64,000 nucleotides of DNA from a virus (IMGVR_UViG_2925939204_000001), one strand, 5' to 3'; shown: positions 18,985 through 52,556, counted from the first letter of the stretch. A program made the numbers and translations. The notes: generated by a model from the letters alone, not told the origin.

Positions 18985-19856
18985 TTCGCCTCCTGCGGCG
19001 GTTCTGGTAGAGGCATCCAGTGGGTTACACCGCCAATTGGCTCATCGTCGTCGTACTCCAATGCGGCTATATAGAACCCGTCACGACGAGAATAAGAAAT
19101 CCCGGACATTACAATGCCATCCGAAACAACAATAATGTCACCCGTTTCTTTCGGCATTCGCTCACTACAGCTTATCCAACCATCCGGAGTTACCGGAGAG
19201 TTGCCCGATAGTGCATTCTGCTCCAGTGATGCTTTTACAAACCACGCTGCCTGAACTATAACGCCATGAATCCAGCGCAAATCAGCATCGCGATCTTTCT
19301 TTTTCATCTTTTCGCCACTTAAGGCCTTGCTTATGTGGCTGCGTACCAGGTCTTCATGTAATTCCTTCGCCTCCTCAATGGTGAAACCACCAGGCAGAAG
19401 AGCCGGAGTTACCGGAGAGCTGGTTGACGCTTCCGGGATTTCCCGAAAATTATTGGTTGACGAATCTTTATTTTCCCGAAAGTTTCCGGACTGAAGCATG
19501 GCTTCGCGGCAATCGTTCCAGCCTGTAGCGTATGCAGCCGCTTTGCTGCTGCCTTCAACTGGCGCATCCTGCCAATACATTTCTTCCGGCACTATCGGCG
19601 CTGGAGGGGCGGCAAATAGATATCCGCCAAAGTCAGGAAGCTCTCTAATGGCCTGTACGAATTTTTGTTTGCCTACGTCAACTCCTAATGGGTAATGAGC
19701 TATAATCTTTGCCACCGGCTCTGCTGCCAGTGATGCCAGAGCAATTCGTGCCAGTTCTTCCGCTTCTTCTGCTGGCAGTACAACGTTGCTACCCGGTCCG
19801 TATGTTTCGCGCCACTGCTTGATTGTCAGTAGTCGATCTTTGGCAATAGTGGTCAT
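18981..19856 (-). CDS. hypothetical protein with DUF551-like C-terminus (291 aa)
   Basis: C-terminal ...WISCSERMPKE...HWMPLPEPP pattern; N-terminal region similar to the N-terminus of 21139..21591. Confidence 0.5.
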   Translation of the reverse strand: MTTIAKDRLLTIKQWRETYGPGSNVVLPAEEAEELARIALASLAAEPVAKIIAHYPLGVDVGKQKFVQAIRELPDFGGYLFAAPPAPIVPEEMYWQDAPVEGSSKAAAYATGWNDCREAMLQSGNFRENKDSSTNNFREIPEASTSSPVTPALLPGGFTIEEAKELHEDLVRSHISKALSGEKMKKKDRDADLRWIHGVIVQAAWFVKASLEQNALSGNSPVTPDGWISCSERMPKETGDIIVVSDGIVMSGISYSRRDGFYIAALEYDDDEPIGGVTHWMPLPEPPQEAK

Positions 19857-20368
19857 GCCGCGTTTCCTTCTTTCTTATTAACAATTACACCGTCATATAT
19901 TTCATTAAGGTGCCCTCTCAACTCCATACGCCTTAATGCAGATAACATGTAATCGCATTCAACCTGCTTATTTCCAGTAAATGGCTTATCGTCAGGATTA
20001 CCCCAACAGCAATTACCCTTGGGCCACCCATGTACTTTCCGTACTCTTCCGTTAACAACGTGAAGTAATCCCCAGCCAGGTGGTAAATCCTCAATTGAAA
20101 TAATTCCCGGCTCACTAATAAAGAATCGCCAGTCGCCCATTCCAAGAGACGGATTTTTACGAAAACGCTTTTTTCTATCTGCCAACAAGTCAGCACGAGA
20201 ACATTTCGCCTCTATCAGGCATGATGCTGAATTTCTGAATCCCATAGCATCTGGCTGTTCTCCGGTACTGGTTACAGCTATAAAGCGGTCATGAAAACAA
20301 ACCTTGAACCCGTTGCGCTTAAGGAACTTGTACGCAATCTGACAGAGTTCGCGGTGTGTTAACGCCAT
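19853..20368 (-). CDS. putative PD-(D/E)xK-type nuclease-like protein
   Basis: Segment TGEQPDAMGF...SCLIEAKCS fits a PD...(D/E)xK core; start taken at internal Met after the overlapping upstream ORF. Confidence 0.45.
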   Translation of the reverse strand: MALTHRELCQIAYKFLKRNGFKVCFHDRFIAVTSTGEQPDAMGFRNSASCLIEAKCSRADLLADRKKRFRKNPSLGMGDWRFFISEPGIISIEDLPPGWGLLHVVNGRVRKVHGWPKGNCCWGNPDDKPFTGNKQVECDYMLSALRRMELRGHLNEIYDGVIVNKKEGNAA

Positions 20369-20369
20369 A

Positions 20370-20558
20370 TCACTCTCCTTTAGTGCGCAAGTGGTTTTTC
20401 CAGCGGTTTTGCGCCGCGCTGGGCTTTTTGCAAAAACCACAATCCATCATCCCGTAATATTTCATCAACCCCATCCGTCGGTTGCTGAGTCTCACCCACT
20501 GCCAGACGCCAGGAGCGTTTCTACGAACTAACAGAATCTTTGCTTTACGGTTTTTCAT
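20370..20558 (-). CDS. small basic protein (62 aa, MKNRKAK...)
   Basis: Complete ORF; a second MKNRKAK-initiated short ORF lies at about 20570-20740 on the same strand. Confidence 0.35.
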   Translation of the reverse strand: MKNRKAKILLVRRNAPGVWQWVRLSNRRMGLMKYYGMMDCGFCKKPSAAQNRWKNHLRTKGE

Positions 20559-20891
20559 CTTACAGCGTACCCTTTCTTCCGCCTGTTCTGTGACGCAGTA
20601 GGCTTACGCTTTGCGGCAAAAGCCACCTGACCAAATGGATGGAGTACCGCTATCTTATGGTTGCTAATAACCAGCTCCACCACACGCACAGGTCGCTGTA
20701 AAAAAAGTCGTTTTGCCTTACGGTTTTTCATCGCTTTGCTCTCCTGCGTTTCTTTGCTGCACGCCGAGCCGCCGCGATACCAGTACGACGCTTTGATGCA
20801 GGAATACCGGTTCCATCAGAAAAGACATGCGACTTTATGAGTGATGTTGACGCCCAAAGGCGAATTGGGTGTGGAAGCAAGCCGAAGAACA

Positions 20892-21137
20892 CTATCTGCA
20901 TTTCACACCACCATTTGTATTCGGTGAGCTATTTACTTCTTTCGCGTTAGCTTTGCGCTCAGCTTCACGAATGGTATAAGCAATGTCATTTAGCATTATG
21001 ACCGACGCGAGGATGTTGCTATGCAGTTGTTCTTCAACGCGGTGCAGCACCACTATTAAATCAGGATGCTCTCTTTCAAACTTTGCACGCTCAATCTGCC
21101 ACAGATTGGCAGCTTCTAACGTTTTATTAGTCGCCAT
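20892..21137 (-). CDS. hypothetical protein (about 81 aa)
   Basis: ORF in operon; start set at internal Met (MATNKTLEAANLW). Confidence 0.4.
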   Translation of the reverse strand: MATNKTLEAANLWQIERAKFEREHPDLIVVLHRVEEQLHSNILASVIMLNDIAYTIREAERKANAKEVNSSPNTNGGVKCR

Positions 21138-21138
21138 A

Positions 21139-21591
21139 TTATTCTCCTTTTTCTTTAAGCATGGCCGCGCGGCAGGCATTCCACCCCTTCACATAACCGA
21201 ACGCCATCAACTGATCACTCATGGCGGGCAGCATTGTGTGGGTCGTACTGATTTCTTCCGGCACTACCGGCGCTGGCGGGGCGATGCGTCCAAGCAACTT
21301 ATTTACCTCTTTCGCCATCGCGTCATATTTATCTAAATGGCGATTAGCTTCTAAGCAGACTCGGCGCATCTGATCTGAGTTAACTCGTTTAACTGGATCT
21401 GCTTCCAGCGATGCCAGCGCCAACTTGAACGCCTGAAGCTCAATGGCACTGTTGGTATCCAGTCCAAACGGTAATTCATCACGATTGGCTTCGTATTCAG
21501 CGATAGTTTGCTTCAGCCATTCTTTGGTTAGTTCAGCCATATCCCTAATTCCCCTTGATGCTGACTTTGACGCCAACCTTGCGAATCTCAT
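21139..21591 (-). CDS. hypothetical protein (150 aa)
   Basis: Complete ORF in operon. Confidence 0.5.
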   Translation of the reverse strand: MRFARLASKSASRGIRDMAELTKEWLKQTIAEYEANRDELPFGLDTNSAIELQAFKLALASLEADPVKRVNSDQMRRVCLEANRHLDKYDAMAKEVNKLLGRIAPPAPVVPEEISTTHTMLPAMSDQLMAFGYVKGWNACRAAMLKEKGE

Positions 21592-22204
21592 CGGCGCATC
21601 TGTTCACGATACTCCGGTGAAACTCACAAAAAATTTTCGCCGACTGCGGCCCTAATGGGTGAACATCGTGCGCACGCGGCAGTACAACCTCCCGTGCTTC
21701 CAGTTCTGCTATGCGATTCTCTGCGGATTCCAGCTTCTCGCGCATATCGTCAACGTACTCGACCAGAGATCCGCCAGCAGGAATTTCGCACTCCTCGACC
21801 AGTTGGAAGTAGATATCAGCTGCGGCCCGTGTGTTGCTATGCCTAGCGTCGCCCATCTCACCTTCACGAAGAGCATCGCGTTCGGCGGTAAGATTGGCTA
21901 TTTTGCTGTCTTTGCCTTCCAGCTCAACGCGCAGCTTCCCTACCGTTAGCGCAATATCCTCGTTCTCCTGGTCGCGGCATTTTATGTATTGCTGGTTTCT
22001 TTCCCATTCATCCAGTAGTGCCAGCACGGTTTCTGGTCCGGTCAGAAATTTGAAGGCGTTGAGCGCATCAATATCCACACCGTAATCCTTAAGTTCCTGT
22101 TCAGTTAACAAATCATCATCAGCTGGCAACATTAACAGGCGTTCCATTGCTGGAATTGCACGTTCCGCCACCTCACGCAGTGCCTGGTAATTAATTTCGC
22201 TCAC
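21545..22204 (-). CDS. hypothetical protein, paralogue family A ([26 protein letters not shown]...)
   Basis: 219 aa; N-terminal ~90 aa near-identical to 27107..27592. Confidence 0.55.
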   Translation of the reverse strand: MSEINYQALREVAERAIPAMERLLMLPADDDLLTEQELKDYGVDIDALNAFKFLTGPETVLALLDEWERNQQYIKCRDQENEDIALTVGKLRVELEGKDSKIANLTAERDALREGEMGDARHSNTRAAADIYFQLVEECEIPAGGSLVEYVDDMREKLESAENRIAELEAREVVLPRAHDVHPLGPQSAKIFCEFHRSIVNRCADEIRKVGVKVSIKGN

Positions 22205-22613
22205 TGGATGACTCCTTTACGAAGCTGTTCAGCGATATCTTCGAGAACGCCATCAGAGAATGAGCGGTCAAAATCTCCTTCCGGCGCATTAGCCATAAAC
22301 TCAGTAGAGGTAAGAATCATCCTGGCAATATCCGCGGCGTTCTTCGCAGTATCATCAATAAAACCAGCTACCCAGGCAGCCAGCATTCTGTTCGCCACAA
22401 AGTAGGCGCCTTCCTTGCGTGCTTCAGTCTTCACTTCAGCCAGGAAAGCGTCGGTGGCTGACATATTTCCTGTTGCCTTCATGGCCTTCAAAATAACCAG
22501 AACGCCATCTTGCCCTACCAACTCGGAGATAATCTCAGTGTTGTCGCCAACAACCTCACAGAATGCCTGAACAGCTTTACGAGCAAGTGCATTCTCCGCC
22601 GCCAGCGCCGCGC
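21916..22613. repeat. ~700-bp direct repeat, copy 1 (partner at 27304..28002)
   Basis: Long near-identical runs visible by eye, e.g. CTGGATGACTCCTTTACGAAGCTGTTCAGCGATATCTTCGAGAACGCC at 22204 and 27592. Confidence 0.8.
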
Positions 22614-22860
22614 ACTTGGCCTCAAGAGCGGCAACCACTTCCTGATGGTCTTTGTACTTAACGTATGAGCCGGAGATGTCATCACCTTCGGTGTTTAGCC
22701 ATGCGTCATTGCAATTCACTGCGTAGGTTCTGATGCTCATGCTGATGCTCTCCCGCCCCTGACAGACGCCAGGCCAGTCAATAAAGTATCCGCAATGCCT
22801 ACCCTCAGACGTGCGCGCAGGATAAATGCCGTTATGACCGGCAAAATATATGCTACCCAT
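22201..22860 (-). CDS. hypothetical protein, paralogue family B
   Basis: 219 aa; C-terminal ~115 aa near-identical to 27589..28086. Confidence 0.55.
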   Translation of the reverse strand: MGSIYFAGHNGIYPARTSEGRHCGYFIDWPGVCQGRESISMSIRTYAVNCNDAWLNTEGDDISGSYVKYKDHQEVVAALEAKCAALAAENALARKAVQAFCEVVGDNTEIISELVGQDGVLVILKAMKATGNMSATDAFLAEVKTEARKEGAYFVANRMLAAWVAGFIDDTAKNAADIARMILTSTEFMANAPEGDFDRSFSDGVLEDIAEQLRKGVIQ

Positions 22861-22905
22861 TCATCTTGCGTTGCCTGGTCCGCCGCCTCGCGCAGTTCTT
22901 GATAG

Positions 22906-23502
22906 TTAATTTTGCTCACTGGTTGCCCCCTGAATACGCTTAAACTCGATTACCCATACCCACGGGTTAGATAGCCAGTTATCCTGCCCGTAAATACTGC
23001 GCCAGATATCACCAAAACCAACGCGATAAACAGCTTCAGGTGGCGTAATCTTGTACGTCGCCGGAGTTGCGCCTTCTGCTTTAGCATCTGCCTCGCTCAT
23101 GTCACGCAGCCGTTCCACACGCACGTCGGTAATTTCCAGAAGAATGCGCGATGCCCAGCGCGGCATGTGAATTGATGGCGTCCACTTTTCTGATACTGGT
23201 TTATTACAAACATCGACCGGAACCCGGTGCGTTTGTTCTGTCCAGGAGTTACGCACGCTTGCGCGATAAACCAGCGTTGCGACGTCCGTCGCTTTGCCAT
23301 GTACCCGGTAGGTTTCGCGAACCCAAATACGATCGCCCGGTTGACCATATGGACAATGCTTGGCAAACAACTCTGCGGCAACTGCTCGTCCATAGAATTT
23401 TTCTTCAACAATCCTGCGAGTCTGTGTTTTATTCCCGCCAAGAATTGCCCGGACCATCTCATCGTTAAAAATCATCCCGCGTTCTTTCATTTTTTGATCC
23501 AC
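22906..23502 (-). CDS. hypothetical protein (198 aa)
   Basis: Complete ORF in operon. Confidence 0.5.
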   Translation of the reverse strand: MDQKMKERGMIFNDEMVRAILGGNKTQTRRIVEEKFYGRAVAAELFAKHCPYGQPGDRIWVRETYRVHGKATDVATLVYRASVRNSWTEQTHRVPVDVCNKPVSEKWTPSIHMPRWASRILLEITDVRVERLRDMSEADAKAEGATPATYKITPPEAVYRVGFGDIWRSIYGQDNWLSNPWVWVIEFKRIQGATSEQN

Positions 23503-23506
23503 TCCA

Positions 23507-24502
23507 TCAGTTATTGAACGTGATCACTCCGCGCTCGATGGCGAAGTCGAAAAGCTGGTTGGCGGCTACGTAAAGGCGTATGCCATGTGCTTTTTCCCAT
23601 GCCCGGACATCGTTTTCTGCGCTTCTGGCGCATTCATCGCAAAGAGGAACGGCCCAGCGATCGTGTTCGTTTAACGAGCGGGCGCGGTACATGAACGGGT
23701 GATTAACTTTGCCTCCGCATCCGATGCACGGACGAGAAATCACAAACCGGAGATAAGCCGGGCTTTTACCGAGAACCGCTTTTGGTCGGCGCATATACAG
23801 CAGGCCGGAATCCTCATCTACAGACAGGTTGACGATCTGCTCTGCGGTTATGTCCACCAGCTCACGGGTGCTGTGCTCCCAGGTGATATCCGATTCTTTC
23901 AGTGTGCCGGTAGGGATTTCCTGTTTTGGCTGACAAAATGCAATGCGACCGGCTTCATCTGGCAGCTCGTCTTTCAGATTCCGGCGAATGGCCCAAAAAG
24001 TGAGTTCAACCATGCTCAGATCGCGTTCTGGCGGTAGTTTTAACTCGCTCGCAGCCCAGTTCATAACCCAGTTGGCACGATTCAGGGATAACTGGTCATC
24101 CAGCTTGCCGTACCCCTTCATCATGTATTCCGCATCATGCTTCCAGCACAGGCGAACGGCAGAGCCGTTATAGAAATGAGTGGTTAGCTGGTGGCTGCAA
24201 TCGCGCTTATCGTGCGCCTGGCAATCGTGGATATTGGAACTTACCCAATGAACAAGCGAATCTTCACCGCCTAATGCGTTAAATACGCGCTCGCTTTGAA
24301 AAAATGCTTTCAGAGACTGGTTGGCAACCAGCGAATAGTTCAGATCCACTACGCCATCTGGCGTGTTTTCAGCCTGTTCGCGCGGAAGTGGAGAGATAAT
24401 GAAACGGCGACCTGCGCCAATGTAGTTGCTGGTGGGCTTGTCTACCGGAAAGACAGCCACACCAGCTCCGTTTACGAAATGAGGTGTGATTATTGCACTC
24501 AT
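23507..24502 (-). CDS. hypothetical protein with C-terminal Cys cluster (331 aa)
   Basis: CIGCGG...CDEC pattern near C-terminus suggests a zinc-binding module. Confidence 0.5.
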   Translation of the reverse strand: MSAIITPHFVNGAGVAVFPVDKPTSNYIGAGRRFIISPLPREQAENTPDGVVDLNYSLVANQSLKAFFQSERVFNALGGEDSLVHWVSSNIHDCQAHDKRDCSHQLTTHFYNGSAVRLCWKHDAEYMMKGYGKLDDQLSLNRANWVMNWAASELKLPPERDLSMVELTFWAIRRNLKDELPDEAGRIAFCQPKQEIPTGTLKESDITWEHSTRELVDITAEQIVNLSVDEDSGLLYMRRPKAVLGKSPAYLRFVISRPCIGCGGKVNHPFMYRARSLNEHDRWAVPLCDECARSAENDVRAWEKAHGIRLYVAANQLFDFAIERGVITFNN

Positions 24503-24542
24503 AATGTATACCGACTCTGTTTTGTTCCGAGCGGTACAATAA

Positions 24543-24576
24543 TATGTTAGAAAACTAAAATCAATGTTCTAACACG
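24543..24576. promoter_or_regulatory. paired operator-like sites (TATGTTAGAAAACTAAAAT and TGTTCTAACAC)
   Basis: Two copies of the recurring motif in opposite orientation, upstream of the 23507..24502 gene. Confidence 0.4.
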
Positions 24577-24599
24577 TATTGAGTGCGTAAATGATTTGA

Positions 24600-25292
24600 T
24601 CAGACTTTAAGCTGCCCTCCCTTCACATGCATTAGCGTCAGATTTCCGCAAAAAACCGCGCCCGTGTCTATGTAGTGCTGATTCCAGTATGCTTTTGGTC
24701 TTCGTACCGGTGTGTGCCCAAAGATAAAGCGATCTGCGCCTGTGATTTCTCCACCAATGCCATCTATCGAATCACCGACGCGACTGCGCGACCAGACAAC
24801 ATCAAAAAGCGACACATCCTTACCGAACTGGTACTCTCCACCTGGATAGTCGGCATGGGCTATAACGATAGTTTCATGCCCGGTGTTCAGCTCAATGATA
24901 TAGGGCAGACGCTTTACCAGCTCCACCAGCGCCCTGGCTAATATTTCCTGATCAGTGTCCAGCATGAAGAACCATTGACCGCCATTCATTAGCCAGTTAT
25001 TCACATTGCCTGCGGGACTTAACGCATCGATCATTAATCGCTCGTGGTTTCCCATAACCGACCGAAACCAGGGCATCTGCAATAGCTCTAGGCATTCAAC
25101 ATTTTCGGTGCCGCGATCGATAAGGTCGCCAACCGATATCAGTAAATCCTGTGTCGGGTCAAAATCCACACGATGGAGTTCATTCATAAGTAGGGTGCAG
25201 CAACCGTGCAAATCACCAACAACCCATATGTTTCTGTAGCCTGAACCATCAATACGGCTATATAAATTCACTTCATGCAGCGCCTGATTCAT
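24600..25292 (-). CDS. Ser/Thr protein phosphatase (lambda-PPase / PrpA-like metallophosphatase)
   Basis: Metallophosphatase motifs GDLHG, GDLIDRG, GNHE. Confidence 0.8.
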
Positions 25293-25600
25293 GCGGCAAC
25301 CTTCTCCCGCAGCCAGATACAAACCGGGCCATCTTCAGTGTCATGAATAGAGCCTACAAACCATCCTTCGCCCTCTGGTCGCTCTGGTTCCCAGGCGGCA
25401 ATATCGGGACCATCTGCGTCCAGATTAAAATCATCTTCATCCATACTGCGAATAGTCCACTGAAGATTATTTTCCTTCATCCAGGCGTCAAATTCCTCAG
25501 TGGATATATATTCACGACCTGCGCAAAACTTTTCATACTCCGGATGTGTCCAGCAGCCATATTCATCACGTTCTACCGGCATTTCTTTAATTGTGTTCAC
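25289..25600 (-). CDS. hypothetical protein (103 aa)
   Basis: Complete ORF; coupled. Confidence 0.5.
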
Positions 25601-25821
25601 TCTTCATCCTCCAAATCAGCAACCGCGTCCATCACATCAGAACCGCGAATAACTTCAAAAGCGCGGCAGGCCATTTGAAATACCCGTTGCTCTTGCGGGT
25701 GCGGAGACTCCCAATATTTGAAGCCTGGGCGATGCGTGTACCCCATCATGGAATAAAAATCGCCAGCAAGTTCAATCGCGGCATCAACAAGTTCGCGATT
25801 TGTCATCGTCTGTTCTGTCAT
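25597..25821 (-). CDS. hypothetical protein (74 aa)
   Basis: Complete ORF; coupled. Confidence 0.45.
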   Translation of the reverse strand: MTEQTMTNRELVDAAIELAGDFYSMMGYTHRPGFKYWESPHPQEQRVFQMACRAFEVIRGSDVMDAVADLEDEE

Positions 25822-26093
25822 TTGGTTTTATCCTGTCTGAACATCACTATCATCAGGTCGCCTTTTGTCGCTATCCTCGCTGTTGTGCCTGGTTCAATGC
25901 TGCCAAGTTCAAATGCGTCATAGAACGCTTCTAATGCCTTCTGGCGTAGTTCCTGTTTGCGCCGTTTTTTCCACTGTTTCAGGAAAATGGAACCCAGCCA
26001 TCGCCATGTACGGGACATGATGTAAAGCCAACCGAGAAGTGCCAGACCGGAATTTAGGAGCGTATCGATCGTTATTGTCGTGTCGATATTCAC
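25818..26093 (-). CDS. small membrane protein (91 aa)
   Basis: Hydrophobic helix LLNSGLALLGWLYIM. Confidence 0.45.
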   Translation of the reverse strand: MNIDTTITIDTLLNSGLALLGWLYIMSRTWRWLGSIFLKQWKKRRKQELRQKALEAFYDAFELGSIEPGTTARIATKGDLMIVMFRQDKTK

Positions 26094-26785
26094 TGGCTGC
26101 CTCCTCTTCGAAGCTCATCGGCAAAGTCAGTTGCATGTTCACCGAGTAGTTTCCAGTTATCGCGTATATCAGATGCAAGCGACTGTTCGGATTTTGAGTT
26201 ACATTTCTGTGCAAACATCTCCAATCCCTGCGCCCGGACTTCAGCCAGGAAAGCATCAGTGGTTGGCGTTTCAGGTATCTGTCTCCTCATCCGTTCTATT
26301 GCATGATTGAACCCGAAGTCTTCCGCGAGAGATACGTCATCCATATTGTCATTGTCATCCTCAATATCCCGTGATTCTGGAATTGCAGACTTTATTCCCG
26401 CATTCTCCGCCGCCAGCGCCGCGCAATTACCCTCCAGCTCTGCAATGCGCTGTTTTGCGGCATCAAGTTCAATCGATAATTTTTCCAACTGCTCTTTATG
26501 CTTCTTGTATTCCTGATATGCGTGCCAGGACTGACCTTTGCGCACACTATCAGTAATATCAGTAATCTGTTCTGGTGTTAGCGTGGTCAGTGGCTGTGCT
26601 GGGAAAATCAGCACTTTCCCGGAATCCCAATCAAAACCAGCGTGAATTGACTGAACCTCAACTGAAGGTGTTGAACCAATGCTGCCAGGCGAATGAACAA
26701 CGATCGTTACATCCATATCGCGACGATGGCTGTGGTTGTTGGACAAAATACGATTCACCAACTCAGAAAATTTGGAAAATTTCAT
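26090..26785 (-). CDS. hypothetical protein with coiled-coil segment
   Basis: Contains the LAAENA motif shared with the paralogue-B family; start set at internal Met overlapping upstream stop. Confidence 0.5.
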
Positions 26786-27138
26786 GCTGATTCCCTTTGA
26801 TCTTCCTGGATAATGTTGTTGCAATCTTTCACGCACTCGTTGCAGATGAAAGCGTTGTCCCCGGCAATTAACTTTTTAACGGTGTGCTGGGATTTGTTGC
26901 AGAAGCTGCAATAAAGCGTTGGACTGGCTGATACGGATGGTGCGCCAGATGTCAGCCGCGCGATGTCGTTCTTGCGACGCAATATCACACGGCTGCACTC
27001 AACCAGCATCTCCGGGGATATACCCTCCTCCGTGGCGAGCGCCTCCAGACGTTCGAGCAAGCGAAATACTTTTTCCTGGGTGATTGCATAATGCGATGTG
27101 GCCATCTCACTCTCCTTTGATGCGAATGCCTGTTGCAA
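26782..27138 (-). CDS. small protein with ClpX-type zinc-binding domain
   Basis: [29 protein letters not shown] closely resembles the ClpX N-terminal C4 zinc-finger (LYCSFCGKSQHEVRKLIAG...ICDECV); no AAA+ module. Confidence 0.6.
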
Positions 27139-27592
27139 TGCTGTTTATGATGCTGTCAGTGCATGGGGTAGAAAGCTGGGCATCTCCAGCAATTTTCATG
27201 ACCTCAACATCTGCATATCGAATACCGAGGTGTATCAGACCGGCTATGCCTGACTTAAGCCGAGCATTTTCCATAAATAGAACTTTTGCCCGCTGTTTTT
27301 CTGCTTCAAGCTCAACGCGCAGCTTCCCTACCGTTAGCGCAATATCCTCGTTCTCCTGATCGCGGAGTTTGATGTATTGCTGGTTTTTTTCCCGTTCATC
27401 CAGTAGTGCCAGCACGGTTTCTGGTCCGGTCAGAAATTTGAAGGCGTTGAGCGCATCAATATCCACACCGTAATCTTTAAGTTCCTGTTCACTTAACAAG
27501 TCATCATCAGCTGGCAACATTAACAGGCGTTCCATTGCTGGAATTGCACGTTCCGCCACCTCACGCAGTGCCTGGTAATTAATTTCGCTCAC
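27107..27592 (-). CDS. hypothetical protein, paralogue family A (second copy)
   Basis: 161 aa; N-terminus near-identical to 21545..22204. Confidence 0.55.
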
Positions 27593-28002
27593 TGGATGAC
27601 TCCTTTACGAAGCTGTTCAGCGATATCTTCGAGAACGCCATCAGAGAATGAGCGGTCAAAATCTCCTTCCGGCGCATTAGCCATAAACTCAGTAGAGGTA
27701 AGAATCATCCTGGCAATATCCGCGGCGTTCTTCGCAGTATCATCAATAAAACCAGCTACCCAGGCAGCCAGCATTCTGTTCGCCACAAAGTAGGCGCCTT
27801 CCTTGCGTGCTTCAGTCTTCACTTCAGCCAAGAAAGCGTCGGTGGCTGGCATATTTCCTGTTGCCTTCATGGCCTCCAAAATAACCAGAACGCCATCTCT
27901 CCCAACCTCCTCACAGATAACCTCAGTGTTGTCGCCAACAACATCGCAGAATGCCTGAACTGCTTTACGAGCCAGCTCATTCTCCGCAGCCAGCGCCGCG
28001 CG
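27304..28002. repeat. ~700-bp direct repeat, copy 2 (partner at 21916..22613)
   Basis: Same near-identical runs as copy 1. Confidence 0.8.
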
Positions 28003-28086
28003 CTCTTTCTCAAGTCGGGAAATTTCCGTTACATACTCAGCGTTACGCTCTGCCAGTTGTGCGGGCGTTAAACCTTCAGACTTCAT
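27589..28086 (-). CDS. hypothetical protein, paralogue family B (second copy)
   Basis: 165 aa; C-terminus near-identical to 22201..22860. Confidence 0.55.
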   Translation of the reverse strand: MKSEGLTPAQLAERNAEYVTEISRLEKERAALAAENELARKAVQAFCDVVGDNTEVICEEVGRDGVLVILEAMKATGNMPATDAFLAEVKTEARKEGAYFVANRMLAAWVAGFIDDTAKNAADIARMILTSTEFMANAPEGDFDRSFSDGVLEDIAEQLRKGVIQ

Positions 28087-28393
28087 ACACTCTCCTTTCG
28101 AAATAAACGTACTGATTAATCATGCCCAGGGGCATTTCGAGTTTTTCCGCGATCTCACGGCGGGGAACACCACACTGATGAAGCTGCCGTGCCAGTTCTA
28201 TATCGCTCTGCCGGTATTTGGTTGACGGATGAAAGTCTCCTTTCAGAATCATGCTGATCCCCAGCTCCCGCGCTTTAGTCCTGACGGCATCACCGGTACG
28301 ACCGATCAGCTTCCCAATACTCTCTACCGTCATAGTTCCGGCGCACTGGCGGAGTATCATGATTTCTGCCCTTCCCCATCCCAGCCAGCTCAC
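28076..28393 (-). CDS. putative HTH DNA-binding protein (105 aa)
   Basis: HTH-like segment ESIGKLIGRTGDAVRTKARELG. Confidence 0.45.
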   Translation of the reverse strand: MSWLGWGRAEIMILRQCAGTMTVESIGKLIGRTGDAVRTKARELGISMILKGDFHPSTKYRQSDIELARQLHQCGVPRREIAEKLEMPLGMINQYVYFERRVYEV

Positions 28394-29001
28394 GCAGAAC
28401 TCCTTCTAACCAAAAGAACGCCATCTTCAGAAACAACGTTGCAGGACTTCAGGTAATTCATTGCCTCTTTCGGTAATGGATTCTTTGGATCGGCGTTTGC
28501 CAGGGATTTCGATAACCTCATGATAAATTTGATCATTACCTTCTGGCGGAGCTTGTGCTCATGAGATAAAGAAAGGTAATAGGAAATGGTATGGGCTAAA
28601 CGCTCACGAAGCTGTTCTGTGCCGTGATATACAGCAGCGATATCACGCAGTGCATTGACCAGTTCCCGGTAAATATGCGGAGCAACCTGGCATTCAATGT
28701 TGGTTGGTGACTCATAAATTACAGTCAGCCCCAGCTTTTCAGCCAGCGCGTGCTCTGCACGAGCACCAACCGAATCTTCCCATCGATTGAGCAAATAGAT
28801 CGCATCAGCAGAACGCACCATTGCCAGGCAAATATCCATGTATTCACTCTGACAAAGGCCACCAGGTAACACAGCTGGATTCAGAACGATATGCCCTTCA
28901 GCCATCAACTCGCTCGCTTTCGCATTAAACGCCGCACGGTTGTAATCTGGATAACCTGTCATCGGCCCCGCGATGTAAATTTTCAAAACACGTTTCACCA
29001 T
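28390..29001 (-). CDS. nucleoside 2-deoxyribosyltransferase-like (Rossmann-like) protein
   Basis: N-terminal KIYIAGPMTGYPDYNRAAF...VLNP pattern; start set at internal Met; first gene of the leftward operon. Confidence 0.45.
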   Translation of the reverse strand: MVKRVLKIYIAGPMTGYPDYNRAAFNAKASELMAEGHIVLNPAVLPGGLCQSEYMDICLAMVRSADAIYLLNRWEDSVGARAEHALAEKLGLTVIYESPTNIECQVAPHIYRELVNALRDIAAVYHGTEQLRERLAHTISYYLSLSHEHKLRQKVMIKFIMRLSKSLANADPKNPLPKEAMNYLKSCNVVSEDGVLLVRRSSA

Positions 29002-29193
29002 CAAAATTTCCCCAGAATCGTGACGCAAAACATAAGCACTGCGAAAAGCTCAATACCAAGCTCAAGTAGCGCCAACGCCCCGAAAACCAACACATAGAAC
29101 AGGCCAATCTCATTCACAGATGGCTGGTGGATCGCACTTAAAGCTATAAGCATCATGTCCTCCAAACATTTATCAGTGATGATATTAATGTTT

Positions 29194-29230
29194 TGTGTTA
29201 GAAAATCAATTTTGAATATCTAACAGTTTT
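29194..29230. promoter_or_regulatory. paired operator-like sites in the divergent promoter region between the pmg operon and ref
   Basis: TGTGTTAGAAAATCAAT and ATATCTAACAG copies of the recurring motif. Confidence 0.4.
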
Positions 29231-30663: not shown

Positions 30664-30879
30664 ATGGCTACTACCCCTACCCCAACTCATTCTGAATTTA
30701 TCTGGCGTTTCTATTCCTGCCAAAAACACCTCTATATCTGCGTCATGGCTGCTACCGAAGCAGAAGCGCGCTCATACCTTCCCGAAGAACCCTGCATTTT
30801 TGCTGCTCGCTTCACTCTTGATGCGATGGAGATCCTCAATTACTGGAATCTGCCGATGAACTGCGTGGAGGTGCACTGA
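30664..30879 (+). CDS. Icd-like small protein (71 aa)
   Basis: Small ORF directly upstream of and coupled to the antirepressor gene; paralogue of 51308..51523. Confidence 0.5.
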   Translation: MATTPTPTHSEFIWRFYSCQKHLYICVMAATEAEARSYLPEEPCIFAARFTLDAMEILNYWNLPMNCVEVH

Positions 30880-31820
30880 TGAATCTGTCCATCTCTCAAA
30901 AAGCGACAATGACCAGTATTGAGATCGCGGAACTGGTAGGTAAGCGTCATGATAATGTGAAGCGTACCATTGAAGTATTAACTAAAGGTGGTGTCATTCA
31001 ATTTCCTCAAATTGAGGAAATTGAAAATAAACAATCAGTTGGCCCTCGTCGATTTTCCAAGGCTTACATCTTTGAAGGCGAACAAGGCAAGCGTGACAGT
31101 ATCATTGTCGTCGCACAGCTTTCTCCCGAATTTACCGCCCGGCTGGTGGACCGCTGGCGCGAACTGGAGAATGCCCGGGTACAGTTAAAATCAAAAGCCG
31201 AAATCCTGGCTGAAATGGCGCAAATGCATCTTGAGCATGAACGCCGGATCAACGCCGTAAATGCCCAGGTAGCCGAGGTATCAGCACAAGTATCGATGGT
31301 CGCTGAAACACTCGAGCAAATAAAGAAGGGCAATATTCCGGAAGGCTACATTGGCTACCGCCAGCTGGCTGCGAAATGTGGCCTGACTGAAGCCAAATGC
31401 CGAAACCTGGTCAACGCTTACCGGATTCCCACCGATACGCATGAGTTTTTAACTCCCGATGGTTTGCTTGCGCGACGCTCCATTGTGGCCCTGGCCCCCT
31501 TCCGGAAAGCCTTTAAGCAGGTGATGTCGGAGGCAGAACCACGCAATAAACGCTGGTATCATCCAAAGATGGGGATGTTTCAGGCAATCCACCATCCTGT
31601 GCCTGAAAGCCCAAAGGATAATCTGTCACTACATACCGCCAGAGAGAAGATCAGGACTGGATACGCAACAGTGTGTCGTCGTTCTTCCTGGCCTGAAGGT
31701 ATATGGGTGTGGCCCGAAGGTGGATCACGAAAGCACTGGCGCACCATCCGTGACGGGAAAATCCATGCTATTGATTTAGCTCCAGAGGATGTTATTGCTA
31801 TGGACTGGATTGTTAGTTAA
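30879..31820 (+). CDS. antirepressor-like protein (Rha-type N-terminal domain, shared Ant C-terminal domain)
   Basis: N-terminus TSIEIAELVGKRHDNVKRTIEVL resembles phage Rha regulatory domain; C-terminal ~210 aa near-identical to 51523..52521. Confidence 0.6.
   Translation: MNLSISQKATMTSIEIAELVGKRHDNVKRTIEVLTKGGVIQFPQIEEIENKQSVGPRRFSKAYIFEGEQGKRDSIIVVAQLSPEFTARLVDRWRELENARVQLKSKAEILAEMAQMHLEHERRINAVNAQVAEVSAQVSMVAETLEQIKKGNIPEGYIGYRQLAAKCGLTEAKCRNLVNAYRIPTDTHEFLTPDGLLARRSIVALAPFRKAFKQVMSEAEPRNKRWYHPKMGMFQAIHHPVPESPKDNLSLHTAREKIRTGYATVCRRSSWPEGIWVWPEGGSRKHWRTIRDGKIHAIDLAPEDVIAMDWIVS
31185..31820. repeat. ~635-bp direct repeat, copy 1 (partner at 51887..52521)
   Basis: Near-identical DNA across the 3' two-thirds of both ant genes. 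Confidence 0.85.
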
Positions 31821-31879
31821 ATGCTGCATCCCCGGCGACGCCGGGGATTTAACTGCCAAATAATCGGATTATCCGCACG

Positions 31880-41304: not shown

Positions 41305-41346
41305 CATTTGTGTTAGATAATTAATATGTATTTTCTAACACAAATG
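41305..41346. promoter_or_regulatory. inverted pair of operator-like half-sites (CATTTGTGTTAGA ... TCTAACACAAATG)
   Basis: Perfect 13-bp inverted repeat with 16-bp AT-rich spacer directly upstream of hrdC. Confidence 0.5.
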
Positions 41347-41353
41347 GTGAGAC

Positions 41354-42259
41354 ATGAGATCAGTCGCTTTCAAAAATATCTTCATCTATCGTCTTTCACG
41401 CGAAGTTAGCTGGGATACTGCAGAAGTAAATGCAGCCCTTAGCAAGTTTGTGTTTACCCCATGCGGTTCTCAGGATATGGCTAAAGCTGGTTGGACCTCC
41501 GTTCTTGGTGACAACCTCACCCATGAATACCAGGGTTTTCTTCTGATACAGCATAAACGAGAGGAAAAAATCCTACCTTCTCAAGTGCTCAAAGAAGAGT
41601 TACAGAAAAAAATCCTGACACTTGAAGAAGAGCAAGACAGAAAGCTGAAGAAGACCGAAAAAGATTCGCTGAAGGATGAAGTGCTTCACTCTCTTCTTCC
41701 TCGTGCTTTCACGAGAAAATCACTCGCCAAAATCCTGATCGACCGCAGCAACCATCTGGTATTCGTTGAGGCAAGCAGCGCCAAAAAGGCAGAGGACCAG
41801 CTGGCTTTATTGCGAAAATCGCTCGGCAGCCTGCCTGTCATTCCATTCACACCACGCGAACCGCTGGAAATTACAATGACCGAGTGGTTTAAAAACGGCT
41901 TCCCTGCCGGATTTACAGCAGGTGAAGACGCCACATTAAAGGGTCTGCTCGATAATGGTGGTGCCGTTCGCTGCAACAAAGTTGATCTACAGTCCGACGA
42001 GATTATGTCTCACATTGAGGCGGGGAAAGTAGCTACGACCGTTGCAATTAACTGGATGGACCGCGCGTCGTTCAGAGTCAACGATGATATGAGTATCAAA
42101 GCCCTGACATTCTGTGATGATCTCTATGACCAGAACGACGATATCGACCGGGAGGATGTAGCACAACGATTTGATGCTGATTTCGTGCTCTTTACGGGCG
42201 AATTATCTGCACTGTTTAACGCGCTGGTGGAGGCCATTGGCGGTGAAGCAGAACGTTAA
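41354..42259 (+). CDS. hrdC: RdgC homologue (recombination-associated protein)
   Basis: Collinear similarity to E. coli RdgC, e.g. [60 protein letters not shown]. Confidence 0.85.
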
Positions 42260-51307: not shown

Positions 51308-51523
51308 ATGGTTAATGCCAATCCTTGCGCACGCCCGGAATTTATCTGGCGCTTTTATTCCTGCACAAAACACACCTACATCAGCGTAATGGCAGCTACT
51401 GAGGCTGAAGCGCGTTCATTTCTTCCTACAGATCCATGCATTTTTGCCGCTCGCTTTAAACTCGATGCTCTGGACGTTTTGACCTACTGGAACCGCCCAA
51501 TGAACTGCGTGGAGGTGCATTAA
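51308..51523 (+). CDS. Icd-like small protein (71 aa)
   Basis: Paralogue of 30664..30879 (shared EFIWRFYSC...VMAATEAEARS...PCIFAARF...NCVEVH). Confidence 0.5.
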   Translation: MVNANPCARPEFIWRFYSCTKHTYISVMAATEAEARSFLPTDPCIFAARFKLDALDVLTYWNRPMNCVEVH

Positions 51524-52521
51524 TGGACGCAGTAACTATCAATAACAAACCATTCCCGACTCTCGAATATAAAAATCAGCGTGTAGTGACCTTTGAGATG
51601 ATTGATGAGGTGCACGAACGTGTTGATGGGGCAGCCAGGGGAACATTTAAGCGAAACAGAAGTCGTTTCATTGAAGGGGTGGATACTTATGTTATTGATT
51701 ATTCTGAAAAGGGCTTTTTAAGCCCATTTGGAATTGATGTCCCCCCGCGCGGTTTGCGCGTGTTCACTGAGTCCGGCTATCTGATGATTGTTAAGTCATT
51801 CAATGACGATCTGGCCTGGCAAGTGCAACGTGAGCTGGTAAACAGCTATTTTCGTATTAAGCAATTAATACCGGAGCACTCACCGCTAAAATCAAAAGCC
51901 GAAATCCTGGCCGAAATGGCGCAAATGCATCTTGAGCATGAACGCCGGATCAACGCCGTAAATGCCCAGGTAGCCGAGGTATCAGCACAAGTATCGATGG
52001 TCGCTGAAACACTCGAGCAAATCAAGAAAGGCAATATTCCGGAAGGCTACATTGGCTACCGCCAGCTGGCGGCGAAATGTGGCCTGACTGAAGCAAAATG
52101 TCGCAACCTGGTCAACGCTTACCGGATTCCCACCGATACGCATGAGTTTTTAACTCCCGATGGTTTGCTTGCGCGACGCTCCATTGTGGCCCTGGCCCCC
52201 TTCCGGAAAGCCTTTAAGCAGGTGATGTCGGAGGCAGAACCACGCAATAAACGCTGGTATCATCCAAAGATGGGGATGTTTCAGGCAATCCACCATCCTG
52301 TGCCTGAAAGCCCAAAGGATAATCTGTCACTACATACCGTCAGAGAGAAGATCAGGACTGGATACGCAACAGTGTGTCGTCGTTCTTCCTGGCCTGAAGG
52401 TATATGGGTGTGGCCCGAAGGTGGATCACGAAAGCACTGGCGCACTATCCGGGACGGGAAAATCCATGCTATTGATTTAGCGCCAGAGGATATTGTTGCT
52501 ACGGACTGGATTGTTAGTTAA
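51523..52521 (+). CDS. antirepressor-like protein (KilA-N/Bro-N-type N-terminal domain, shared Ant C-terminal domain)
   Basis: N-terminal ~110 aa unrelated to 30879..31820; C-terminal ~210 aa near-identical. Confidence 0.6.
   Translation: MDAVTINNKPFPTLEYKNQRVVTFEMIDEVHERVDGAARGTFKRNRSRFIEGVDTYVIDYSEKGFLSPFGIDVPPRGLRVFTESGYLMIVKSFNDDLAWQVQRELVNSYFRIKQLIPEHSPLKSKAEILAEMAQMHLEHERRINAVNAQVAEVSAQVSMVAETLEQIKKGNIPEGYIGYRQLAAKCGLTEAKCRNLVNAYRIPTDTHEFLTPDGLLARRSIVALAPFRKAFKQVMSEAEPRNKRWYHPKMGMFQAIHHPVPESPKDNLSLHTVREKIRTGYATVCRRSSWPEGIWVWPEGGSRKHWRTIRDGKIHAIDLAPEDIVATDWIVS
51887..52521. repeat. ~635-bp direct repeat, copy 2 (partner at 31185..31820)
   Basis: Near-identical DNA with a handful of substitutions. 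Confidence 0.85.
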
Positions 52522-52556
52522 TTACTGTTGCCCCGGCCTGTCCGGGGCTTTCGTGA

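Follow-up and report, generated by a model that had tools for sequence, protein, structure and literature searches.

We analysed a 64,000-nt stretch of DNA (IMGVR_UViG_2925939204_000001, hereafter the window; all coordinates count from its first letter), which is a D6-like, P1-related phage-plasmid of E. coli. At each of two sites in its accessory region the window carries a pair of overlapping genes, and a 698-bp direct repeat spans the junction within each pair. We put a probability of roughly 75% on the joint claim that these are EaE and EaD/Ea22 genes, otherwise known from lambdoid phages, and that the repeat arose by recombination plus gene conversion. In the course of events that we propose, the pair at one site (site B) is resident and common to close relatives. 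At the other (site A), where those relatives have a single Ea22 gene, an EaE-EaD segment of at least 1.35 kb was brought in and overwrote it in this lineage; the segment is mosaic and partly chromosomal-prophage in origin. Gene conversion within the genome then probably made a 330-bp tract over the gene junction alike at both sites.

Parts of Escherichia phage D6, a P1-related plasmid prophage, match the region at 94.5% identity, and many non-mobilizable E. coli plasmids of ~90 kb match it at 93-98%. The gene order is shared with annotated D6 and D6-like plasmids, and plasmid CP021537.1 is 100% identical over 10.4 kb that include both copies of the repeat. The repeated genes are adjoined by accessory genes of D6 and P1 (Ref, DUF4406, the ppp phosphatase and DUF968/pdcB). 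This ppp/pdcB region has two hotspots, site A (21545-22919) and site B (26090-28086), both of which are filled by two lambdoid accessory families, P22-EaE-like and P22-EaD/lambda-Ea22-like. An earlier note on this DNA, made from the sequence alone, had assigned the genes to a pmg operon. That label does not fit: by Pfam matches and P22 homology they are EaE and EaD (Ea22) genes of lambdoid type within the P1/D6 ppp-pdcB accessory region. The ppp/pmg genes of P1 are non-essential, as is lambda ea22.

The repeat has an identical core and diverged flanks

Self-BLASTN of the window places the repeat at 21916-22613 (copy A) and 27304-28001 (copy B), with 95.99% identity, 28 mismatches and no gaps over the 698 bp. 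A second repeat search returned the same block plus three short satellite families, and the repeat far exceeds what chance would give. In copy A, 413 nt from the 3' end of EaE-A meet 289 nt from the 5' end of EaD-A at the GTGA junction; copy B is built likewise from EaE-B and EaD-B. Each copy takes in 137 codons at the end of the upstream gene and 96 at the start of the downstream one, and in both pairs, which lie on the minus strand, the two genes overlap by GTGA and are translationally coupled.

The earlier note had described a near-identical direct duplication of about 700 bp across the junction of each pair. The duplication is real, and the four open reading frames (ORFs) that it named (21545..22204, 22201..22860, 27107..27592 and 27589..28086) are all present on the minus strand. 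"Near-identical" is right for the overall figure but not along the length of the repeat: identity is 94.9% in the left segment (21916-22112), 100% in the core (22113-22442, the partner of 27501-27830 in copy B) and 89.5% in the right segment (22443-22613). The 330-bp core, which spans the gene junction, has no mismatch, and the flanks, 368 bp together, have 10 (left) and 18 (right). None of 200,000 permutations gave a mismatch-free run as long as 330 bp (P<5e-6).

Import at site A and probable conversion between the sites

We searched 5,426 complete E. coli genomes for the core. The EaE-EaD junction core is present in 858 of them (16%), at 1,031 places on chromosomes and plasmids. The best match among these places is 97.0% identical, and the two window copies are 100% identical to each other. 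The tract is thus more alike within the genome than it is to any sampled allele, and it lies between homologous flanks that are more diverged. This pattern indicates that the core is the product of a recent intragenomic gene conversion. Because site-B-type alleles (96-97%) come closer to the core than site-A-type alleles (93-94%) do, the comparison weakly suggests that conversion ran from B to A.

The surroundings of the core at site A have a different history. A site-B gene of plasmid LR890273 matches the right third of copy A at 99.4% identity, and copy B matches it at only 89.5%. Thirteen contigs were found to encode the exact EaE-B protein, and eight of these were read. In five of the eight (L014 and L017-L020), the sequence follows the window at 99.5-99.7% identity between 30000 and 22768, then gives way to one 216-aa Ea22 gene at site A, and is homologous again from 21420. 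Because these closest relatives have a single Ea22 gene between 22768 and 21420, the site-A pair must have come into this lineage by replacement of at least 1.35 kb. Chromosomal prophages match the stretch 21421-22197, which holds EaD-A and the beginning of the following gene, at 97.6-97.9% identity. No single donor was found for the site-A segment among the complete E. coli genomes, where no record holds 80% or more of it.

The "internal duplication" of the earlier note therefore does not stand as a simple event. The comparison of copy number over relatives finds the site-B pair kept and one Ea22 gene at site A in the closest of them, whose backbone is 99.6% identical; the site-A segment is imported and mosaic, and only the 330-bp core looks intragenomic.

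Identity of the genes

By sequence homology, the upstream gene of each pair is a homologue of P22 EaE and the downstream gene is a member of the EaD/lambda Ea22 family (Pfam PF13935, Ead_Ea22). EaE-A (22201..22740, minus strand) most likely starts at the ATG at 22740 and would then encode 179 aa (MSIRTY...); the mechanical ORF reaches 22860. Its last 137 codons lie in the repeat, and it matches phrog_614 at 6e-44. EaE-B (27589..28086, minus strand) encodes 165 aa with an N-terminus of the MKSEGLTPAQLAE type. It is 75% identical to P22 EaE over 106 aa in the C-terminal part of that protein (blastp, E 2e-54), matches phrog_614 at 2e-43, and is found as an identical protein on 13 contigs. The module that the upstream genes have in common shows homology to P22 EaE at 65.7% over 99% of the query (tblastn). 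In P22 the gene order is eaE-eaF-eaD, just downstream of abc2/erf.

EaD-A (21545..22204, minus strand; 219 aa) starts at a GTG that overlaps the stop codon of EaE-A, and its residues 1-96 are inside the repeat. It matches PF13935 at 3.4e-29 and P22 EaD at 2e-17 (blastp). Its C-terminal half is unique within the window, yet is present in chromosomal prophages. EaD-B (27107..27592, minus strand; 161 aa, ending in IKGE) matches PF13935 over its full length at 9e-32, and the same gene is at the same site in CP104667.

The earlier note had also seen the motif family reappear in 26090..26785, and it does: this minus-strand gene, EaE-C, is a third EaE-like gene, and a 26-nt segment of copy A (22589-22614) matches 26400-26425 perfectly. 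EaE-C encodes 231 aa, and its N-domain, middle segment and C-terminal domain are all different. The ORF 26090..26836 matches PF13935 at 4e-9, and the gene also matches phrog_368/614. Within the window, EaE-C is the closest relative of Oad2 (HK446 gp27), to which it is 28% identical over 172 aa (blastp, 3e-13).

PF13935 has a gathering score of 27 bits. EaD-A (102.6 bits), EaD-B (110.9), ORF 26090..26836 (37.5) and ORF 22737..22919 (32.3) are above it, and the ORFs 22201..22860 (18.8 bits) and 27589..28086 (no match), both of EaE type, fall short. NCBIfam has no family for any of the five genes, and sequence searches against solved structures in the PDB gave no significant match for EaE-A, EaD-A, EaD-B or EaE-C. 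An AlphaFold2 model of EaE-B, built on a 32-sequence alignment, is all-helical with a long N-terminal helix at residues 8-53 (predicted local distance difference test, pLDDT, 67.9; predicted template modelling score, pTM, 0.42). Because Foldseek found no PDB match to this model below E 0.5, we draw no inference from the fold.

Modules are exchanged at coiled-coil motifs

The ends of the repeat fall on conserved coiled-coil motifs. The right end encodes AALAAEN (minus strand; 22589..22614 in copy A and 27977..28002 in copy B), which also occurs in EaE-C at 26400..26425. The left end is the KLRVELE coiled-coil motif of EaD, which is conserved in P22 EaD too. In 15 EaE-type genes from the window and fetched loci, AALAAEN joins at least three kinds of upstream segment to at least four kinds of downstream segment in varied combinations. 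An alignment of 32 proteins consists of alternative blocks for the N-terminal head, the middle segment and the C-terminal domain, and a natural chimera (database protein P0001) has the N-terminus of Oad2 followed by the middle and C-terminal modules of the window. We regard these module combinations and this block structure as direct evidence that exchange occurs at the AALAAEN and KLRVELE motifs. The boundaries are inside genes, in coiled-coil heptads, and what is reshuffled is, as read from these blocks, protein domains and not whole genes.

The proteins appear to follow a common plan: a variable N-terminal head, a coiled-coil stalk, a variable middle segment with a hinge, and a variable C-terminal domain. 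We suggest that the conserved DNA that encodes the coiled coils (AALAAEN in EaE, KLRVELE in EaD), together with the equally conserved Shine-Dalgarno (SD)/GTGA junction, provides short patches of homology for module-swapping homologous recombination. The earlier note had reported that one copy of each pair has a different distal half and had proposed diversification by recombination. The protein alignments bear out the first, since EaD-A and EaD-B align only at residues 1-118 and the N-terminal ~35-45 residues of EaE-A and EaE-B differ. The second is borne out by the boundary motifs, which have different partners in different relatives, and by segments of site A that match site-B alleles of other plasmids and alleles of chromosomal prophages.

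A split gene at site A

The minus-strand ORF at 22737..22919 (MSKINYQELREAADQ...) encodes 60 aa, 27 of which are genuine Ea22 N-domain residues; the remaining 33 are out of frame. In relatives, this N-domain (MSKINYQELREAA...FIDWPG) is fused in frame to the EaE body. Compared with the fused allele of CP029365, the window has a 1-bp deletion (GCCGGGT to GCCGGT, at about 22838) and a 12-bp duplication (AGCATCAGCATG). Together, these close the N-terminal frame after 60 codons at an ATGA (22737-22740), where the MSIRTY... frame starts. Because the linked deletion and duplication split an in-frame Ea22N-EaE fusion, the 60-aa ORF is, by this comparison, a gene-fission remnant of gene 22201..22860 and not a third copy. 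The earlier note had listed it as a third truncated relative; the ORF does exist and matches the N-terminus of Ead_Ea22, but it is the 5' part of the same gene, cut by a 1-bp deletion.

The two changes occur together in the window and in five fetched loci (L010, L011, L013, L015 and L016), and the fused allele lacks both. The deletion-bearing sequence is found in 21 of the 234 matching E. coli records, on plasmids and chromosomes, and PGAP annotates the 60-aa piece as a coding sequence of its own in CP085058 and CP086338. We also weighed programmed frameshifting at the deletion and rejected it, since TTTTGCCGGTC contains neither an X XXY YYZ heptamer nor a long homopolymer and the 12-bp duplication gives an ordinary ATGA restart.

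Possible functions and relation to known systems

The Ea22 protein of lambda is made early and is non-essential; it forms a coiled-coil tetramer, its C-terminal domain is variable, and its partner is unknown (PMC7093339, PMC10834534, PMC10695390). It favours lysogeny, a role known for lambda and Stx phages only (PMC7093339). The downstream genes of the window, the 60-aa remnant and part of EaE-C match the same Pfam family, and the sequence blocks of the window proteins agree with the plan of N-domain, coiled coil and variable C-terminal domain described for that family (PMC7093339, PMC10834534). The C-terminal mosaicism is likewise extreme. There are also differences. Lambdoid Ea22 genes are in the pL-driven exo-xis/early-left region, whereas the window genes are in the ppp/pdcB/Ref region of a plasmid prophage, although homologous alleles of the window genes do occur in lambdoid prophages. 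The C-terminal domains of the window proteins appear unrelated to the solved C-terminal domain of lambda Ea22 (no PDB sequence match). The window has two full Ea22-type copies plus fragments in one element, and a pro-lysogenic role like that in lambda would mean something different for a plasmid prophage that does not integrate.

Among EaE-type proteins, HK446 gp27 is Oad2 (OLD anti-defence 2), which binds and inhibits the OLD abortive-infection nuclease (bioRxiv 10.64898/2026.07.10.737580). Oad2 is described as "related to P22 EaE" and "in some phages fused with an EaD/Ea22 protein" (10.64898/2026.07.10.737580). Oad2 matches phrog_614 at 8e-53, and the 6e-44 of EaE-A and 2e-43 of EaE-B are followed by EaE-C at 1e-18. 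The alignment of EaE-C with Oad2 starts at the coiled coil and reaches the C-terminus. The locations also correspond: the split allele of chromosome CP086338 directly follows anti-RecBCD and DUF2737 genes, and HK446 gp27 has the same position (HK446 annotation). Searches with the PADLOC defence-system models gave no match except a coiled-coil-type one of EaD-A to LmuB (E 0.0064).

We tentatively suggest that the products might act as oligomeric coiled-coil scaffolds that show exchangeable heads to host or defence proteins; by analogy with the known members this is our best guess, but we hold it to be less likely than not. Two pairs with different distal modules would then broaden the range of targets. 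For an anti-defence role of the window proteins, as surmised in the earlier note, there is one published lead, Oad2 in the same PHROG, and such a role could be proposed by analogy. A more far-reaching and, in our view, unlikely extension is that EaE and EaD/Ea22 would form a combinatorial counter-defence toolkit whose heads inhibit immune or stress proteins of the host. The coiled-coil DNA would double as recombination sites that reshuffle heads among phages, prophages and phage-plasmids, and the conversion-homogenised core would let the paralogues co-assemble into mixed oligomers with several specificities at once.

Alternative explanations

One alternative is that two allelic EaE-EaD cassettes were acquired independently from the lambdoid and phage-plasmid pool, with no exchange inside the genome. 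We consider this improbable. The EaE-EaD junction is widespread, in 858 of the 5,426 genomes, and both sites are recombination hotspots in relatives, but independent imports should differ in the core as they do in the flanks (5-10%), and the core is 100% identical within the genome and at most 97.0% elsewhere.

There is a somewhat smaller chance that selection maintains no function in these genes and that they are passengers decaying in a recombination hotspot. The frameshifted fusion gene at site A can be read as one sign of decay, relatives have partial or pseudogene Ea22 annotations, and lambda ea22 and the P1 region are, as noted above, non-essential. However, the five ORFs are intact, with SD sequences and overlapping start/stop coupling, and the C-terminal domain is almost invariant over 32 diverse homologues. 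In the split allele, which has spread over plasmids and chromosomes alike, the 1-bp deletion is paired with a 12-bp duplication that gives a clean ATGA restart, and deletion of lambda ea22 has a phenotype (PMC7093339).

We think it very unlikely that the repeat is a simple and recent intragenomic duplication of ~700 bp that then diverged by point mutation, and the segment-wise identities already largely refute it. One gap-free 698-bp block at 96% with an identical core would agree with such an event, but the mismatches are clustered (0 in 330 bp, 28 in the 368-bp flanks) in a way that the permutations did not reproduce. Moreover, the right third of copy A is closer to the LR890273 allele than to copy B, and the sequences on either side of the site-A pair match prophages and not the closest relatives.

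Finally, it is barely credible that the second copy or the identical core is an artefact of assembly or polishing, since short-read polishing can homogenise repeats of this size but the copies differ at 28 positions, have unique flanks and hold intact ORFs, the double arrangement is also in CP021537.1 and in the independent assembly GCA_017143575.4 (99.99% over 10.4 kb), and more than 10 other contigs show the arrangement of site B by itself; judged from the assemblies alone, the repeat is not an artefact.

Several points nevertheless weigh against import plus conversion and the functions that we attach to the products. Limited sampling underlies what we say about when the conversion took place and which way it ran, a donor with an identical core could be among the alleles outside the sample, and short-read polishing could have homogenised the core of the repeat. 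The HK75 homologue of Oad2, which is 54% identical, does not inhibit OLD, so that activity is allele-specific (10.64898/2026.07.10.737580); because a homologue this similar fails against OLD, the specificity of Oad2 is not transferable to the window proteins. What EaE-A and EaE-B have in common with Oad2 is limited to the AALAAEN coiled coil and the hinge. Their C-terminal domains are of another type, and beyond the coiled coil only a 15-aa hinge aligns, well short of full length. The model of EaE-B is only moderately confident and has no fold match.

Significance

Both gene families, their mosaicism and gene flow between phages and phage-plasmids are already known. As in other mosaic lambdoid phages and phage-plasmids, the points of exchange here are at short conserved sequences, and the window alleles are likewise common to plasmid and chromosomal prophages, in keeping with reported phage/phage-plasmid gene flow (PMC10879196). 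The window differs from such mosaicism elsewhere in its intragenic boundaries and in the conversion tract that appears superimposed on them. What we consider new are the boundaries on coiled-coil heptads inside genes, a probable conversion tract between two cassettes in one plasmid prophage, and a gene-fission allele that is spreading.

Ea22/EaD and EaE are among the commonest "dark-matter" genes of enterobacterial temperate phages, and only two members have a known function, lambda Ea22 (lysogeny bias) and Oad2 (the OLD block). The locus offers a clean natural example of domain swapping, exchange between plasmid and chromosomal prophages, conversion between paralogues, and gene fission. Its matched pairs, alike in one half and different in the other, should be handy for mapping the module that bears specificity. 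The locus is instructive but unsurprising, and it reveals no new kind of system.

Other features of the element

A minus-strand gene at 26782..27105, between EaD-B and EaE-C, encodes a protein of 107 aa (from MATSHY) whose only recognisable domain is a ClpX C4 zinc finger (PF06689, 2e-17) in the C-terminal 40 residues. The gene is kept at site B in many relatives in the same order. A ClpX N-domain without the ATPase could be a decoy for ClpX adaptors or substrates.

Ea22 proteins have a C-terminal K/R-G-E tripeptide "of unknown significance" (PMC7093339), which is present in EaD-B (IKGE) and not in EaD-A (IKGN). In the region 19853-29028, the codons for this tripeptide are part of AAAGGAGAG-TGA-n-ATG, the SD and start of the next coupled gene (for example, 27107-27124 and 20364-20387). 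The same AAAGGAGAG junction follows a gene that is not of the Ea22 family (20370..20558), and EaE ends such as LRKGVIQ* and LRRGGSQ* carry AGGAG before the GTGA overlap. Thus, the motif may reflect the DNA of the gene junction and not a function of the protein.

The element has a second internal repeat, 31186-31836 and 51887-52537 (651 bp, 97% identity). The genes concerned, 30879..31820 and 51523..52521 (both plus strand), encode anti-repressor-like proteins of 313 and 332 aa with different N-terminal domains and a shared C-terminal module of ~217 aa. The equivalent gene in L016 (the 100%-identical locus) and L013 matches Pfam Phage_pRha, and the D6 homologue is annotated as anti-repressor Ant. 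This pair is a further example of domain swapping within the element.

Three 30-bp palindromic sites, TGTTAGAA-N14-(T)TCTAACA, are at 24545-24574, 29196-29225 and 41311-41340, with four strand-matches compared with 0 expected in shuffles. All three are intergenic and ahead of gene blocks: in the ppp/DUF968 gap, in the gap between the divergent DUF4406 operon and ref, and ahead of 41354..42259. These are candidate regulator binding sites, and no sigma-70-like promoter is beside the first two. Simple scans of two intergenic gaps for sigma-70 promoters and terminators found none.

The stretches 19494-19611 and 21157-21283 share 33 nt at 94% and 30 nt at 80%, linking the 3' end of gene 21139..21591 to a gene ~1.67 kb further on. 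In the chromosomal prophages matched by 21421-22197, a gene annotated with a DUF551 domain adjoins the EaD homologue. Together these point to one more C-terminal module that is shared. Lastly, two small minus-strand ORFs of 62 and 58 aa are in tandem at 20370-20731; both start with MKNRKAK and have a common 21-nt start region, and they form a tandem pair of paralogues.

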